DNA from: an uncultured Clostridia bacterium
GTDB lineage: Bacteria; Bacillota; Clostridia; Christensenellales; UBA1242
Reading direction: 5' to 3'
NCBI GenBank assembly: GCA_947384015.1
Contig: CANDFN010000001.1
Span: 1 to 41,687, forward strand
Length of the DNA: 41,687 nucleotides
Shown here: in pieces, positions 2,153-29,081 of the stretch
Position numbering within the stretch: position 1 is the stretch's first letter
How the letters are laid out: every line of letters starts with the position of its first letter
Notes under the pieces: generated by a model
What the model was told of the DNA's origin: nothing
The model's database searches: none
Seen by the model: only the letters and a program-made list of their open reading frames with translations
Made by a program: the position numbers and the translations under genes

Positions 2153-3487
2153 ATGTTACTAGATGACCAATGGAAAAGAGTTTTAAATAAGTTAGAAAAT
2201 GAAGTTACTGCGGTAACTTTTGATTTATGGTTAAGCACACTTACCCCTATTGTTTATTCTAATGACGAACTTATTTTACTAGCCCCAAGCATTACGGCTA
2301 AAAATCAAGTTAATCAACCAGCAATATATAATAAGCTAACCAAATGTGTTAGAGAAGAATTTACACTTTACACCACTGTGCGTGTAACAGACAATCAAGA
2401 GTATGAAGAAAGCTTAAAAGCAAAAACGCAAAAAGCAGAAGAAAAGGCTGCACCTAGTAAATTTAATAAAAAATATACTTTTGACAATTTTGTTGTAGGT
2501 AAATCTAACCAAGTTGTGTATGCTGCAATGAAAAATGTTGCAGAACGTCCAAGTAGCAAGTTTAACCCTCTATTTATTTATGGTGGTGTTGGGCTTGGCA
2601 AAACCCACTTGTTGCATGCTGTTGGAAACTATCTTTGGGAAAGTAGACCAGACCTTAATGTTATATATGTAACTTGCGAAAAGTTTACAAACGATTATGT
2701 AGACTATCTTAGAAACAGTAAAGACAAATTAAACAGCGAATTTAGAGATAAATACCGCACAGTAGATGTGCTTATGATTGACGATATTCAATTTATATCT
2801 AACCGTATGGGTATTCAGGAAGAATTTTTCCACACTTTTAACGACCTTTATCAAAGCAACAAACAAATTATAATAGCATCAGACCGCCCACCAAAAGAGA
2901 TGAGCGCCTTAGAAGAGCGTTTGCGCAGTAGATTTTCTAGCGGACTTATTCAAGATATTCAAGAACCAGACTATGAAACCAAGGTTGCAATTATTAAAAA
3001 GAAATGTAGTCAAGACGGCTATTTAGTGGACGAAGATGTTGTTGACTTCATTGCACAAAGAACAGGAACCAACATCCGTGAAATGGAAGGGATTTTATCT
3101 AAGGTTGTATTCTATTCTAGCCTACTTGGTAAAACACATGCCACAATGGAAGATGCAAAAGAAGCACTTAAAGATTATGGCGAAAGTGAACGCACAAACT
3201 TAGACGCAAACAAAATCATTACCACCGTATGCGATTTCTTTAAAGTTACTAAAGACGATTTACTTGGCAAAAAGAAAAACAAAGAGATTGTAGAACCAAG
3301 ACAGATGTGTATCTACTTAATTAACGACATGTTAAACATTCCGCTTACCGCTATTGGCGAACTTATGGGCGGACGCGACCATACAACAATAATGCATGCA
3401 CGCGATAAAATTAGCAATCAAATAAAAATTAATCCACATGTAAAAACATTGGTTAACGATATAAAATCAAGATTATTACAATATTAA
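2153..3487 (+). CDS. dnaA: Chromosomal replication initiator protein DnaA
   Basis: 444 aa. Walker A GGVGLGKTHLLHA, Walker B LMIDDIQF, sensor region, and C-terminal DNA-binding helix (MGGRDHTTIMHARDKI). Confidence 0.97.
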   Translation: MLLDDQWKRVLNKLENEVTAVTFDLWLSTLTPIVYSNDELILLAPSITAKNQVNQPAIYNKLTKCVREEFTLYTTVRVTDNQEYEESLKAKTQKAEEKAAPSKFNKKYTFDNFVVGKSNQVVYAAMKNVAERPSSKFNPLFIYGGVGLGKTHLLHAVGNYLWESRPDLNVIYVTCEKFTNDYVDYLRNSKDKLNSEFRDKYRTVDVLMIDDIQFISNRMGIQEEFFHTFNDLYQSNKQIIIASDRPPKEMSALEERLRSRFSSGLIQDIQEPDYETKVAIIKKKCSQDGYLVDEDVVDFIAQRTGTNIREMEGILSKVVFYSSLLGKTHATMEDAKEALKDYGESERTNLDANKIITTVCDFFKVTKDDLLGKKKNKEIVEPRQMCIYLINDMLNIPLTAIGELMGGRDHTTIMHARDKISNQIKINPHVKTLVNDIKSRLLQY

Positions 3488-4411: not shown

Positions 4412-5488
4412 CTATTCCACATTACCATTTTTTACATTTATTGTTGTGTATTTAATTTCTGTGTTTGGCACGGCGGTGCAAGTTATAAGTGTTTGAAATT
4501 TTTGGCACATATTAAGCAAACGGTTTTGTCTGCCAGCATCTAACTCGCTTAACACATCGTCCAAAAGCAAAATTGGATATTCTCCAATTTCTTCTTTAAC
4601 AACCTCCATAAGCGCAAGCTTTAACACAAGTGCTACCGTCCTCTGTTGCCCTTGGCTTGCAAATGCACGGCAATCCTTTCCGTCTATTTTAAACACAATA
4701 TCATCCCTATGCGGGCCAAGGCAAGTATAACCCAACTCTAACTCTTTGTCTATAATACGCTCAAACCCTAAAGCCAAATCTTCGCTAATTGTTTTATCTT
4801 GCTTAGGTGTGTAACTGTAAGCAATTTCCAGCTCTTCTGTTAAAGTTATCTCTTTATGAATTGCAACCGCATAAGCCTTTAACTTTTCTATAAATTTTAG
4901 TCTCTTTTCTATTATTCGGGTGGCGGTTTCTATAAGTTGAGGTGTAAATAATTGCAGTTGCTCCTTCTTAGCCTCTGTGCTTGCAAAATCCTTTAAAATT
5001 GCGTTGCGTTGTTTTAAAATTTTATCGTATTTTAAAAGATCGTATAAATAAACCTTATCAAACTGGCTAATAGAAATATCTAAAAAATTACGCCTATCTT
5101 CTGGCACTTCCTTAATAAGCTTTAACTCGTCTGGGCTAAAGTATACTACCGACAATACCCCCACAAGTTCGGTTAGCTTAAGCACATTTAGGTTGTTTAT
5201 TTTTATATATTTTTTGTTGCTTACATCTAAATAAATTTGTATATTTTTTTTACCAGCGCTTGTAACAAAGCTTAAATCTATTTTACTGCGCTGTTCGTTA
5301 AACTTAACAATCTGTTTATCTTTACTGTTTTTAGGGCTTCTACCAACGCTTGTTAAATATACACTTTCTAGCATATTTGTTTTGCCCTGAGCATTGCTTC
5401 CAACAACAAAATTAACCCCTTCGTTAAAATTGACATTAGAAGAAGTATAGTTTCTAAAATTTGTTAAGTTTAATGTGGTGAGCCTCAT
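4412..5488 (-). CDS. recF: DNA replication and repair protein RecF
   Basis: 358 aa. N-terminal LTNFRNY...GSNAQGKTNMLE Walker A, signature-like SQGQQRT, and Walker B LLLDDVLSELD. Confidence 0.93.
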   Translation of the reverse strand: MRLTTLNLTNFRNYTSSNVNFNEGVNFVVGSNAQGKTNMLESVYLTSVGRSPKNSKDKQIVKFNEQRSKIDLSFVTSAGKKNIQIYLDVSNKKYIKINNLNVLKLTELVGVLSVVYFSPDELKLIKEVPEDRRNFLDISISQFDKVYLYDLLKYDKILKQRNAILKDFASTEAKKEQLQLFTPQLIETATRIIEKRLKFIEKLKAYAVAIHKEITLTEELEIAYSYTPKQDKTISEDLALGFERIIDKELELGYTCLGPHRDDIVFKIDGKDCRAFASQGQQRTVALVLKLALMEVVKEEIGEYPILLLDDVLSELDAGRQNRLLNMCQKFQTLITCTAVPNTEIKYTTINVKNGNVE

Positions 5489-24918: not shown

Positions 24919-25698
24919 ATGGCTAAAATAATTTCCGTAACTAATCAAAAAGGCGGCGTTGGCAAAACAACCACCTGTGTAAATTTAGCAGCTTATCTTG
25001 CCAATGCAGGTAAAAAGGTTTTAATGATAGACATGGACCCTCAAGGCAATGCTTGCCAGAGCGTTGGTGTAGAAGTAGAAAAAAACAAAAATACAATTTA
25101 CGAAGTTTTGATTGGCGAAACTGATATAAAGTCTGTAACCTATAAATCTGTTCAAAAAGGTCTAGACGTTGTTCCTTCAACTGTAGATTTGGCTGGTGCA
25201 GAGATTGACTTAGTATATGTTGATGATAGGGAGCGCGTTCTAAAAGAGGCATTGCAAAATGTGCGCCCTGACTATGATTTCATCTTTATAGATTGCCCAC
25301 CTTCATTAGGATTATTAACCGTTAACGCCTTAACTGCTAGTGATTCTATTCTAATTCCTATTCAATGCGAATATTTTGCTTTGGTTGGCTTAGGTCAATT
25401 AATGAATACTGTTAGATTAATAAAGATGAATCCTAACCTTAACCCAAATATTGAAATAGAGGGTGTCTTGCTTACAATGAAAGAAAACAGAAGCAATCTT
25501 GTTTCTCAAGTGTCTAGCGAAATTAGAAAGTATTTTGAAACAAAAGTCTTTAATGTAACAATTCCAAGAAATATTCGTTTAGCTGAAAGTCCAAGCCATG
25601 GTTTACCAATAGTCATGTATGACCCAAAAAGTAAAGGGGCTTTAGCTTACAAAGAATTATGTGAAGAATTTTTAAAGAATCAACAGCCACAAGCTTAA
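24919..25698 (+). CDS. soj: Chromosome partitioning ATPase ParA/Soj
   Basis: 259 aa. Deviant Walker A NQKGGVGKTTT, MIDMDPQGN, and FIFIDCPPSLG. Confidence 0.93.
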   Translation: MAKIISVTNQKGGVGKTTTCVNLAAYLANAGKKVLMIDMDPQGNACQSVGVEVEKNKNTIYEVLIGETDIKSVTYKSVQKGLDVVPSTVDLAGAEIDLVYVDDRERVLKEALQNVRPDYDFIFIDCPPSLGLLTVNALTASDSILIPIQCEYFALVGLGQLMNTVRLIKMNPNLNPNIEIEGVLLTMKENRSNLVSQVSSEIRKYFETKVFNVTIPRNIRLAESPSHGLPIVMYDPKSKGALAYKELCEEFLKNQQPQA

Positions 25699-25843: not shown

Positions 25844-25859
25844 TGTTCCACATGGAACA
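25844..25859. promoter_or_regulatory. parS-like site 1 (TGTTCCACATGGAACA)
   Basis: Two differences from the Firmicutes parS consensus TGTTCCACGTGAAACA. The palindrome arms extend to 25839-25864 (AGTATTGTTCCA..TGGAACAATACT). Confidence 0.75.
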
Positions 25860-26041: not shown

Positions 26042-26057
26042 TGTTCCACGTGGAACA
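26042..26057. promoter_or_regulatory. parS-like site 2 (TGTTCCACGTGGAACA, perfect 16-bp palindrome)
   Basis: One difference from TGTTCCACGTGAAACA. It is preceded by the same AGTAT as site 1. Confidence 0.82.
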
Positions 26058-26193: not shown

Positions 26194-27081
26194 ATGAAAC
26201 CAGGATTAGGCAGAGGTTTAGATAGCATTTTAAGGGCTTACGATGAAGAAAGCCAATCAGGAGCAAAAGCAAGTTCCGAAACAAGCAAGTTTGCAATGAG
26301 ACAAGGAGATGTTCAAAAGATATCCATATCTAAAGTTTATGCAAACCCAAACCAACCACGTAAAATATTTGATAAAGAAAGTTTAAATGAATTAGCTGAA
26401 AGCATTCGCATTCACGGCTTAATTCAACCAATCATCGTTAATCAAATGGATGACGGCTATATGATTATAGCTGGTGAAAGAAGATATCGTGCAAGCAAGA
26501 TATGCGGCTTAACAGAGATTGATGCAATAGTAAAAAACTACACATCAAAACAAATAGCTGAAATCACCATTATTGAAAACCTCCAACGTGAAGATCTTAA
26601 TCCAGTAGAATTAGCAAAGGGTATAAAACGTTTAATGGACGAACATGGCTTAACACAAGAAAAAGTTGCAGAACGTTTAGGCATGTCTAGACCTGCAGTT
26701 GCCAACACAATTAGGCTTCTAGCTTTATATCCTGAAGTATTAGAACTAATAGAAAAAGGTAAAGTATCATTTGGCCATGCAAAAATATTAGTAGCAGTTT
26801 CAGATTATGCGACACAACTACTGCTAGCAAAAAAGGTTGCTAAGGACAAACTAACAGTCAGAGATCTAGAAAGAGAAGTTAATGCTTTACTAGGAAACAA
26901 AAAACGTAAAAAGGTTGCAAAATTACCAAGCGGTGAATTACAAGAGTTCGTTAGTGAACTTCAACGTAAATTAGGAACAAAAGTCTCTCTAATTGGTAAC
27001 GATGCTAAAGGGCGTATTTATATAGACTATTATTCTCAAGACGATTTAGACAGAATCTACGACATAGTTCTAAGAAGATAA
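26194..27081 (+). CDS. spo0J: Chromosome partitioning protein ParB/Spo0J
   Basis: 295 aa. ParB box IAGERRYRAS, HTH region LTQEKVAERLGMSRPAVANTIRLL, and a C-terminal dimerisation region. Confidence 0.93.
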   Translation: MKPGLGRGLDSILRAYDEESQSGAKASSETSKFAMRQGDVQKISISKVYANPNQPRKIFDKESLNELAESIRIHGLIQPIIVNQMDDGYMIIAGERRYRASKICGLTEIDAIVKNYTSKQIAEITIIENLQREDLNPVELAKGIKRLMDEHGLTQEKVAERLGMSRPAVANTIRLLALYPEVLELIEKGKVSFGHAKILVAVSDYATQLLLAKKVAKDKLTVRDLEREVNALLGNKKRKKVAKLPSGELQEFVSELQRKLGTKVSLIGNDAKGRIYIDYYSQDDLDRIYDIVLRR

Positions 27082-27134: not shown

Positions 27135-28112
27135 CTAAAACAATTTTTCTTCAACAACAGTTACGTTTTTCAACTGTTGCTTAAAGGCTTTTTCCACATC
27201 CTTAACAATAACGTCCAAACTTTTGCTTGAAACAAAAGCAGCAGCCCCTTGATGACCACCTCCTCCAAACTTTTTAGCTATTAAAGAAACATCGTAACCT
27301 TTCTTTGCTCTAAAACTAACATACCAATTATTTCCTTTAGGAGAAATAAAGCAGATAAGCTTTGAAGTATATATAGAATTAAGCTGATTGGCTATGCCAA
27401 ATTCATCTTCTTCTTTTGCCTTTAATTCGTCAAGTTGTTCTTTCTTTATGTATGTAATTAAAAAACCCTCTTTATATTCTTTGGTATTAGAAATTGCTTT
27501 GGCATAAAGCTGTTGATTTAACAGTGTATTATGCTTTAAAAAGTTTGTATAGACATCTTCCACTTTAACCACATCCGCACAAGCGCTAGCGATTTTGTAA
27601 GTGTTAGAATTTATAGCGCCTACAGAAAAGCCATCAGTATCGGTTAATAAGGCAGCATATATTTTACCTAGCTGAACAGCAGAAAATTTATAACCATAAT
27701 ATGACAACAATTCATAAACAATTTCGCAGCTAGAACTAACTACATCAAAGTAAGAAATACAATCTTTAAAAATATTTGTTGCATGATGATCAATATTAAT
27801 CTTAACTGCCGCATTCTGATAAAGCGAAGCATACCTCCCCACCCTATCCAAATTAGGACAATCCATAATTATAGCAGCATCATAATTTTGTTTAGGCTGA
27901 GGATTAATTGTTTTATCTTCTATAATTTCTAAGCAGTTATCAGGAATATTTCCTTCAGCAAAAATGTCAACACAAGAGATTTTGAATTTTTCAATTAAAA
28001 AATCCTGCATAATAACCATACTGCTTAAAGCATCAGCATCTGGATCTATATGTGCTATTAAACACACCGAATTCACATTCTTTATTTTTTTCAATTTTTT
28101 AAAACTATCCAT
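27135..28112 (-). CDS. DHH/DHHA1 family phosphoesterase (NrnA-like oligoribonuclease/pAp phosphatase)
   Basis: 325 aa. IAHIDPDADALSS (DHH motifs I-II), DHH-like INIDHH, and DHHA1 GGGH (FGGGGHQGAAAF). Confidence 0.85.
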   Translation of the reverse strand: MDSFKKLKKIKNVNSVCLIAHIDPDADALSSMVIMQDFLIEKFKISCVDIFAEGNIPDNCLEIIEDKTINPQPKQNYDAAIIMDCPNLDRVGRYASLYQNAAVKINIDHHATNIFKDCISYFDVVSSSCEIVYELLSYYGYKFSAVQLGKIYAALLTDTDGFSVGAINSNTYKIASACADVVKVEDVYTNFLKHNTLLNQQLYAKAISNTKEYKEGFLITYIKKEQLDELKAKEEDEFGIANQLNSIYTSKLICFISPKGNNWYVSFRAKKGYDVSLIAKKFGGGGHQGAAAFVSSKSLDVIVKDVEKAFKQQLKNVTVVEEKLF

Positions 28113-28218
28113 AAAATAATTATATCATAATTTTTGTTTTAAAGTTACCATTTTTTTAATCTAATTAAACTTATTTTTGTTTTTTACACGCTTGCTATTA
28201 CATGCTTAAAAAGACACT

Positions 28219-28273
28219 TTGTCCACACGCTGTGGACAAAATTGTGGAAAACTTGTGGATTGAATGTGGAAAA
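28219..28273. promoter_or_regulatory. Cluster of five DnaA-box-like 9-mers (candidate oriC element or DnaA-box cluster)
   Basis: TTGTCCACA (28219-27), TGTGGACAA (28231-39), TGTGGAAAA (28243-51), TGTGGATTG (28254-62) and TGTGGAAAA (28265-73). Each has 1-2 mismatches to TTATCCACA/TGTGGATAA. The four same-strand boxes start 12, 11 and 11 bp apart. Confidence 0.65.
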
Positions 28274-28382
28274 CGACAAAATAAACACTGTTTATACAAA
28301 CAAATTTTACAGAATGTGTAATAAAATAAATTTACGTTCTATTAAAAAGCTTTAAATTATAAAATAAAACTAAGGGCAAACT

Positions 28383-29081
28383 GTGATTTTTTCTTTAAAC
28401 AAAAAAGTAATTATTTGTGTTTTAATAAGTATTTTTATTATTAGCGCCTGCTGCGCTACATGTTTTTCTGTAAAGCTGGCAAAATCTCCAAATTTTTCCT
28501 ATACTATTGTTATTGATGCTGGACATGGAGGCAGAGACGGCGGAAGCGTAGGAAAAAACGGAACTATAGAAAAAGTAATAAACCTAAAATACGCCAAAGC
28601 TTTAGAAAAAAAGCTAACAGAATTAGGCTACAACGTTATTATGACAAGAACTAACGACAACGGCCTTTATGACGAAAATGCAAAAAACAAGAAATTAAGC
28701 GATATGAATGCGCGACTTAAAATTATAGAAAAAGCAAATCCTGCGCTTGTTATAAGCTTGCATATGAATAGTTTTCCAAATCAATCAGCGCATGGCGCAA
28801 GCACCTATTATAGAGAAGGTGACAGTGCAAGCGAAACCTGCGCCAACTTAATACAGCGTGCGCTAAACAATTACTGCGATGCACCAAGCATAAAAGGTAA
28901 ACCAGCAGACTACTATATGGTAAAGTGCAGTTATTACACTTCTGTTTTGGTAGAGTGCGGTTTTATATCAAATCCAGAAGAAGAAGCATTGCTAAACAGT
29001 GATGCCTATCAAGAAAAAATAATATATGCAATATATTCAGGTATTCAATTATATTTTGGACAATTTGCAAGCTCAATATAA
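28383..29081 (+). CDS. cwlD: N-acetylmuramoyl-L-alanine amidase (Amidase_3, CwlD-like)
   Basis: 232 aa with a GTG start. N-terminal TM, IVIDAGHGGRDGGSVG, ISLHMNS, and ECGFISNPEE. Size and architecture fit germination-specific CwlD. Confidence 0.85.
   Translation: MIFSLNKKVIICVLISIFIISACCATCFSVKLAKSPNFSYTIVIDAGHGGRDGGSVGKNGTIEKVINLKYAKALEKKLTELGYNVIMTRTNDNGLYDENAKNKKLSDMNARLKIIEKANPALVISLHMNSFPNQSAHGASTYYREGDSASETCANLIQRALNNYCDAPSIKGKPADYYMVKCSYYTSVLVECGFISNPEEEALLNSDAYQEKIIYAIYSGIQLYFGQFASSI

Follow-up and report, generated by a model that had tools for sequence, protein, structure and literature searches.

A conserved, phased array of DnaA boxes between a DHH phosphoesterase gene and an amidase gene in a clostridial genus is probably an origin-proximal DnaA sink and not the replication origin

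The DNA analysed here (the window, 41,687 nt) is the entire contig C1 of the genome bin G000, which comprises 957 kb in 103 contigs with 31% GC. It carries pieces of a scrambled Firmicute origin region, among them recF (minus strand) and rsmG (plus strand), together with jag, yidC, yidD and rnpA (8.8–11.3 kb, minus strand) and dnaA (2153–3487, plus strand), which lies apart from dnaN (contig C64). Further to the right are parA (24919–25698, plus strand) and parB (26194–27081, plus strand), and the palindromes at 25844–25859 and 26042–26057 bear out the nearby parS sites reported in the first-pass annotation of this DNA. Gene parB is convergent with a gene for a DHH/DHHA1 phosphoesterase (NrnA-like; 27135–28112, minus strand), and this gene is in turn divergent from one for an Amidase_3 protein (CwlD-like N-acetylmuramoyl-L-alanine amidase; 28383–29081, plus strand). 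The intergenic region of 270 bp between the divergent genes (28113–28382) holds the array that is the subject of this work, in the position given by the earlier annotation. Also in agreement with that annotation, no DnaA box with up to one mismatch flanks dnaA on either side or precedes rpmH, and these positions contain almost nothing even at two mismatches; the gap of 184 bp upstream of dnaA (1969–2152) is free of boxes.

The array consists of five 9-mers resembling the DnaA box within 55 bp (28219–28273), all of them where they had first been noticed. Box 1 (28219–28227, plus strand) reads TTGTCCACA, with one mismatch to the consensus TTATCCACA, and is the sole box in its orientation. Box 2 (28231–28239, minus strand) reads TGTGGACAA on the plus strand, that is, TTGTCCACA on the minus strand, so that Boxes 1 and 2 form the perfect palindrome described previously, being exact reverse complements separated by the spacer CGC. 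Box 2 is also the first of four direct boxes, followed by Box 3 (28243–28251, minus strand; TGTGGAAAA), Box 4 (28254–28262, minus strand; TGTGGATTG, two mismatches) and Box 5 (28265–28273, minus strand; TGTGGAAAA). Each of these starts 12, 11 and 11 bp, respectively, past the start of the preceding one, which confirms the spacing given previously. The window as a whole contains 24 DnaA boxes, against 14 expected. Four boxes with up to one mismatch within 55 bp did not occur in any of 400 first-order Markov simulations, and three boxes occurred in one of the 400; these results indicate that the array is real and non-random, and exclude chance.

The remainder of the intergenic region was examined for other elements. 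A promoter scan of the gap found nothing overlapping the boxes, and the search for an RNA gene in it returned Rfam matches at chance level only. A putative extended -10 element of the DHH gene, TGATATAAT (28119–28127, minus strand), could be read from the sequence about 95 bp from Box 1. This motif is situated exactly 6 nt ahead of the ATG of the DHH gene, with no Shine-Dalgarno sequence, and the same motif is found at the orthologues in relatives; because the extended -10 lies only 6 nt before the ATG, the DHH mRNA is probably leaderless. The array lies 45–110 bp outside the putative promoters of both neighbours, where a classical operator would not be expected. The DNA to the left of the boxes, which also holds this extended -10, had been singled out in the first-pass annotation as very AT-rich and a possible unwinding element. 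Its AT content is indeed 84%, but the other intergenic regions of the window range from 69 to 84%, so that the AT content of the left flank is ordinary for the intergenic DNA of the window.

Orthologues of the DHH gene were found in 15 of 18 sampled genomes of the genus, and the array is present upstream of this gene in nine of the eleven genus loci inspected, mostly with perfect TTATCCACA boxes and with identical spacing. A 30-nt pattern spanning Boxes 1 to 3 had matches, typically a single one, in 40 of 61 genus genomes and none in the remaining 21; the reversed pattern, used as a control, gave no match across the same genus genome search. The array is a single-copy element. Its plan in the genus is AAAAG, Box 1, N3, inverted Box 2, CTN, Box 3, CT, Box 4, NN, Box 5, about 12 nt, and Box 6. 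The last of these, 12 bp beyond Box 5, is present in most relatives and was lost in G000, whose copy is the most eroded, with no perfect box at all. Since its boxes are degenerate and the sixth is lost, the array of G000 may be weaker than those of its relatives. The array of G017 is reduced to three direct boxes, and G005 and G016 retain an intact DHH-amidase gap with no boxes in it. Given its absence from G005 and G016, and the lack of a match in 21 of the 61 genomes, any role of the array must be dispensable.

The alignment of 16 arrays from the genus showed nearly invariant Boxes 1 to 4, a freely varying first spacer and flanks without conservation. Because of this distribution of variation, the pattern reads as the signature of a protein-binding array rather than of an RNA hairpin. 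This bears on the idea that the inverted pair is the hairpin of an intrinsic terminator for the minus strand and that the remaining boxes are coincidental, to which we assign almost no probability. Such a terminator would agree with the terminator-like score that ATTTTGTCCACAGCGTGTGGACAAAGT followed by GTCTTTTTAA obtained in a scan, and with the CTTTT found after the pair in 13 of 16 relatives. Nevertheless, both arms of the stem keep the DnaA consensus and do not covary; no gene on the minus strand reads into the pair, the right-hand gene being on the plus strand; the same pair occurs in other families without a T-run; and phased boxes follow it. The palindrome was for these reasons rejected as a terminator.

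The first-pass annotation had proposed the array as a candidate displaced oriC. In this reading, the array would be the replication origin of the chromosome, displaced from dnaA, and a DnaA oligomer on the phased boxes would open the AT-rich DNA to their left; the dense phased array, the divergent genes, the vicinity of parB and parS, and the lack of boxes around dnaA in the window are all in keeping with it. We therefore evaluated GC skew, which had been put forward as a check, with a per-gene model in which the skew of the coding strand is set by co-direction with the replication fork, and scanned for the switch point. No switch exists in the window, in either skew or gene strand, and placing one at the array (28.2 kb) has a cost of dLL -7.3. 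Genes on the minus strand are of leading type on both sides of the array, with a coding skew of about 0.1–0.35, whereas those on the plus strand are of lagging type, with about 0–0.09 and the single exception of a 513-bp ORF near 19.9 kb (0.21). This distribution on both sides of the array indicates that the fork crosses the window from right to left.

The same model was applied to relatives. The best switch of G017 falls within 1 kb of the gap between dnaA and dnaN, and the array, 14 kb away, is rejected with dLL -56.6. Likewise, the best switch of G072 (118.6–121.6 kb) coincides with dnaN/dnaA and that of G018 lies at 73–79 kb, the array being rejected with dLL -24.1 and -23.5, respectively. 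The distance from the array to the dnaA/dnaN switch is 14–15 kb in G017 and G072. In G046 the best switch is upstream of parA, and the array costs 7.0 log-likelihood units, versus 5.6 for dnaN/dnaA; G005, which has no array, also has its best switch upstream of parA, and the skew of G013 is too weak for placing a switch. Skew is consequently not decisive in every genome, although the result for the array is ambiguous only in G046. The switches of G005 (C1, 420–426 kb) and G046 (C1, 71–73 kb) immediately precede parA, some 10 kb away from the dnaA/dnaN gap, on the stretch that separates this gap from the DHH-amidase locus; the latter contains the array in G046 and lacks it in G005. No cluster of DnaA boxes was found at this switch point in either genome, and its position may be due to noise in the model or to a recent inversion.

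Other features of the locus also argue against an origin. Neither a run resembling a DnaA-trio nor a GC cluster adjoins any of the 16 genus arrays. The orientation for this search was fixed from the control locus L065 and from the E. coli R1/DUE arrangement; L065 does show a trio-like run, with a box, a weak box, CCCC and then CTACTACGACTACGACGA. In addition, the direct boxes of the array point into the opposed box, the flank that would have to be opened has an ordinary AT content, and G005 and G016 retain an intact DHH-amidase gap without boxes, whereas an origin could not be lost in this way. A better candidate exists outside the window. The densest box cluster of the genome, with seven boxes in 300 bp, lies on contig C64 directly upstream of the only dnaN gene, and both divergent arms of this contig have a leading-type skew. 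The region (C64, 848–1703) contains the seven boxes and a module in which AAAAAC-TTGTCCACA is followed by a weak box, an A-rich run and then a GC cluster. This module is conserved upstream of dnaN in G000 and in the four relatives compared, with the arrangement AAAAAG-TTATCCACA, weak second box, A-rich run, GC cluster and further AT-rich DNA; a canonical DnaA-trio (CTA repeats) was not seen in the region upstream of dnaN of G000 or its relatives. These results place the oriC of G000 most likely upstream of dnaN on C64, and allow us to reject with good confidence the oriC reading of the array, which we regard as very unlikely. The window's densest array of DnaA boxes, tempting as that annotation was, is accordingly not an origin, and the likely origin of the genus can be placed in front of dnaN despite the flipping or displacement of dnaA.

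The organization of dnaA and dnaN varies in the genus. In most species they are divergent and share a box-rich gap, as in G005, G013, G017, G007, G046 and G072 (for example, locus L042, G017:C1:203877–205857), they are in tandem in G018, and in G000 dnaA is detached from dnaN altogether. A divergent dnaA/dnaN pair is unusual for Firmicutes.

A core of three boxes with the topology of Boxes 1 to 3 was identified in 12 of 200 other genomes of the order, and in nine of these 12 loci it is situated 90–230 bp upstream of dnaA. Those nine loci have the canonical order rnpA, core, dnaA, dnaN, recF, gyrB, and the direct boxes read toward dnaA. Of the other three, one is between dnaA and dnaN, one is upstream of an Amidase_3 homologue (in G076) and one is elsewhere. 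The core of this dnaA-promoter/oriC1 region in other families is identical to that of the array (TTATNCACA, N3, TGTGGATAA, N3, TGTGGATA) and often also shares the spacers GGC and CTT, as in TTATGCACA-GGC-TGTGGATAA-CTT-TGTGGATA. Unlike it, the array has five to six boxes in the genus and is located, in G000, in the gap between the DHH and amidase genes, 25 kb from dnaA and not between rpmH and dnaA. In sister genera of the same family, the parB region showed no such array and dnaA was not preceded by boxes. The simplest reading of these comparisons would be that the genus kept and expanded an ancestral dnaA-promoter/oriC1 core while dnaA flipped or moved away, leaving a regular, conserved array that is apparently derived from that core and now uncoupled from dnaA.

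The core is present twice in G087 (L056 on C6, locus positions 4756–4811), upstream of dnaA and at an unrelated locus, and this second copy implies that duplication or relocation of the core occurs in other lineages too. In G076, which belongs to another family and has a canonical dnaA-dnaN region, a dense box cluster (L064 on C29, locus positions 4912–5043) precedes an Amidase_3 homologue by about 180 bp; there may be a recurrent link of DnaA boxes with this gene.

The topology of the core is that of the DARS elements of E. coli, in whose core box II is inverted relative to box I and followed by box III in direct orientation (Sugiyama et al., 2019, PMC6868365). The DARS1 core, as read from the MG1655 sequence, is TTATCCACT, N5, TGTGGATAA, N3, TGTGTATTA. 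The array thus resembles the core of DARS1 and DARS2 in its three-box topology and in the 3-bp spacer between the direct boxes II and III; it differs in carrying extra direct boxes and in the first spacer, which has 3 bp throughout the 16 genus arrays and the loci of other families, against 5 bp in DARS1. From the difference in the first spacer, membership in the DARS family is not supported. DARS, which promote the release of ADP from ADP-DnaA, are not known outside E. coli and its relatives. It is improbable, in our judgement, that the array is a DARS-like element, the first outside the E. coli group, that would reset the nucleotide state of DnaA, or else a relocated half of oriC, oriC1, that would still aid the firing of oriC2 through a long DnaA-bridged loop.

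The array also shares its co-oriented 9-mers with gaps of 2–3 bp with the arrays of E. coli oriC, whose sites are spaced by 2 bp, and with the basal unwinding system of Firmicutes (Pelliciari et al., 2021, PMC8287927), although, unlike these, it has no adjacent trios or GC cluster and no unwinding element that stands out by AT content, and is not at the replication switch. Another element of comparison is oriCII of P. aeruginosa, located upstream of gidA, which controls the gidAB-parAB operon and is bound by DnaA without initiating replication (PMC13438810). The array is likewise a DnaA-box cluster near par genes; in this case, however, the par genes are not downstream of it.

Clusters of DnaA boxes proximal to the origin are already known as a class, and those of B. 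subtilis are the closest analogues of the array among the experimentally studied systems. B. subtilis has six oriC-proximal DnaA-box clusters (DBCs) whose deletion leads to early initiation, with a restraint that depends on dosage and position, and the authors expected DBCs to be widespread among Firmicutes (Okumura et al., 2012, PMC3245932). Like these, the array is an intergenic cluster of consensus boxes outside oriC, in a Firmicute, tens of kb from oriC in relatives and by the soj-spo0J region. It differs from them in being compact (55–85 bp), with a rigid repeat of 11–12 bp and one opposed box, and in being a single element, in contrast to six DBCs, that some species of the genus lack and that has a predicted function.

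We consider it probable that the array is, jointly with not being an origin, an origin-proximal DnaA-box cluster acting as a sink or buffer for DnaA. The proposal of a DnaA-titrating cluster in the first-pass annotation is in this respect well founded as regards a conserved, single-copy and origin-proximal element with close-packed consensus boxes, the binding of DnaA being a prediction; the array is 14–44 kb from dnaA/dnaN in the five relatives G017, G018, G072, G046 and G013. With spacers of 2–3 bp, direct 9-mers are placed such that adjacent DnaA molecules can make head-to-tail contact, and 9-mers spaced in this way in one orientation guide cooperative DnaA oligomers. On this basis, DnaA would form a short head-to-tail oligomer on the four or five direct boxes, separated by 2–3 bp, and the one opposed box would cap the oligomer on the DHH side. 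Lying a few tens of kb from oriC, as judged by the relatives, the array would be duplicated soon after initiation and, by buffering DnaA or acting as a sink for it, would exert a negative feedback on initiation, as the DBCs of B. subtilis do. Secondarily, the array may also tune the divergent promoters of its two neighbours. That DnaA occupies the sites, oligomerizes on them and affects initiation is inferred from their arrangement. For Clostridia, the array would be a small, naturally occurring substrate on which to test how DnaA oligomers are shaped by the spacing and orientation of boxes.

The context of the array in relatives is informative about a possible role in transcription. The DHH gene is its usual neighbour on the side of Box 1 and the Amidase_3 gene on that of the direct repeats, and the distance from Box 1 to the start of the DHH gene is fairly constant in relatives, at 80–107 bp. 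This constancy and the position of the array in a divergent promoter region could mean that it mainly controls transcription, with DnaA activating or repressing one or both of the genes for the NrnA-like DHH protein and the CwlD-like Amidase_3 protein, and so coupling them to the replication cycle. The DnaA-box cluster upstream of the Amidase_3 homologue of G076, in another family, and the location of the ancestral core at the dnaA promoter, where it is presumably autoregulatory, would be consistent with such control, and there are precedents in the DnaA-regulated promoters of B. subtilis (PMC3245932) and in oriCII of P. aeruginosa (PMC13438810). However, in G072 a distance of 1.1 kb separates the array from the DHH gene, in G012 the two are on different contigs, and no amidase gene adjoins the array in G007, G013, G014 and G047. 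Its persistence when either neighbour is displaced suggests that the array has an independent role and is not the operator of one particular promoter. Besides, neither putative promoter is overlapped by the boxes, and six consensus sites exceed the need of simple regulation. Mainly transcriptional control is therefore an unlikely explanation, albeit the strongest of the alternatives to a DnaA sink or buffer.

A few smaller clusters of DnaA boxes were found outside the DHH-amidase locus. In G005, which lacks the array, three boxes lie upstream of a gene for a DnaD/DnaB-like protein (C1, 327153–327206), in an element that is distinct from the array. A box cluster also precedes a DnaD/DnaB-like gene in G072, and the orthologue of this gene in G000 is on C12 (13666–15105). 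G000 itself contains two small clusters, one near a contig end (C26, 11700–11820) and one upstream of gyrB (C38, 1–380). Taken as a group, all these clusters suggest a small DnaA regulon of replication genes.
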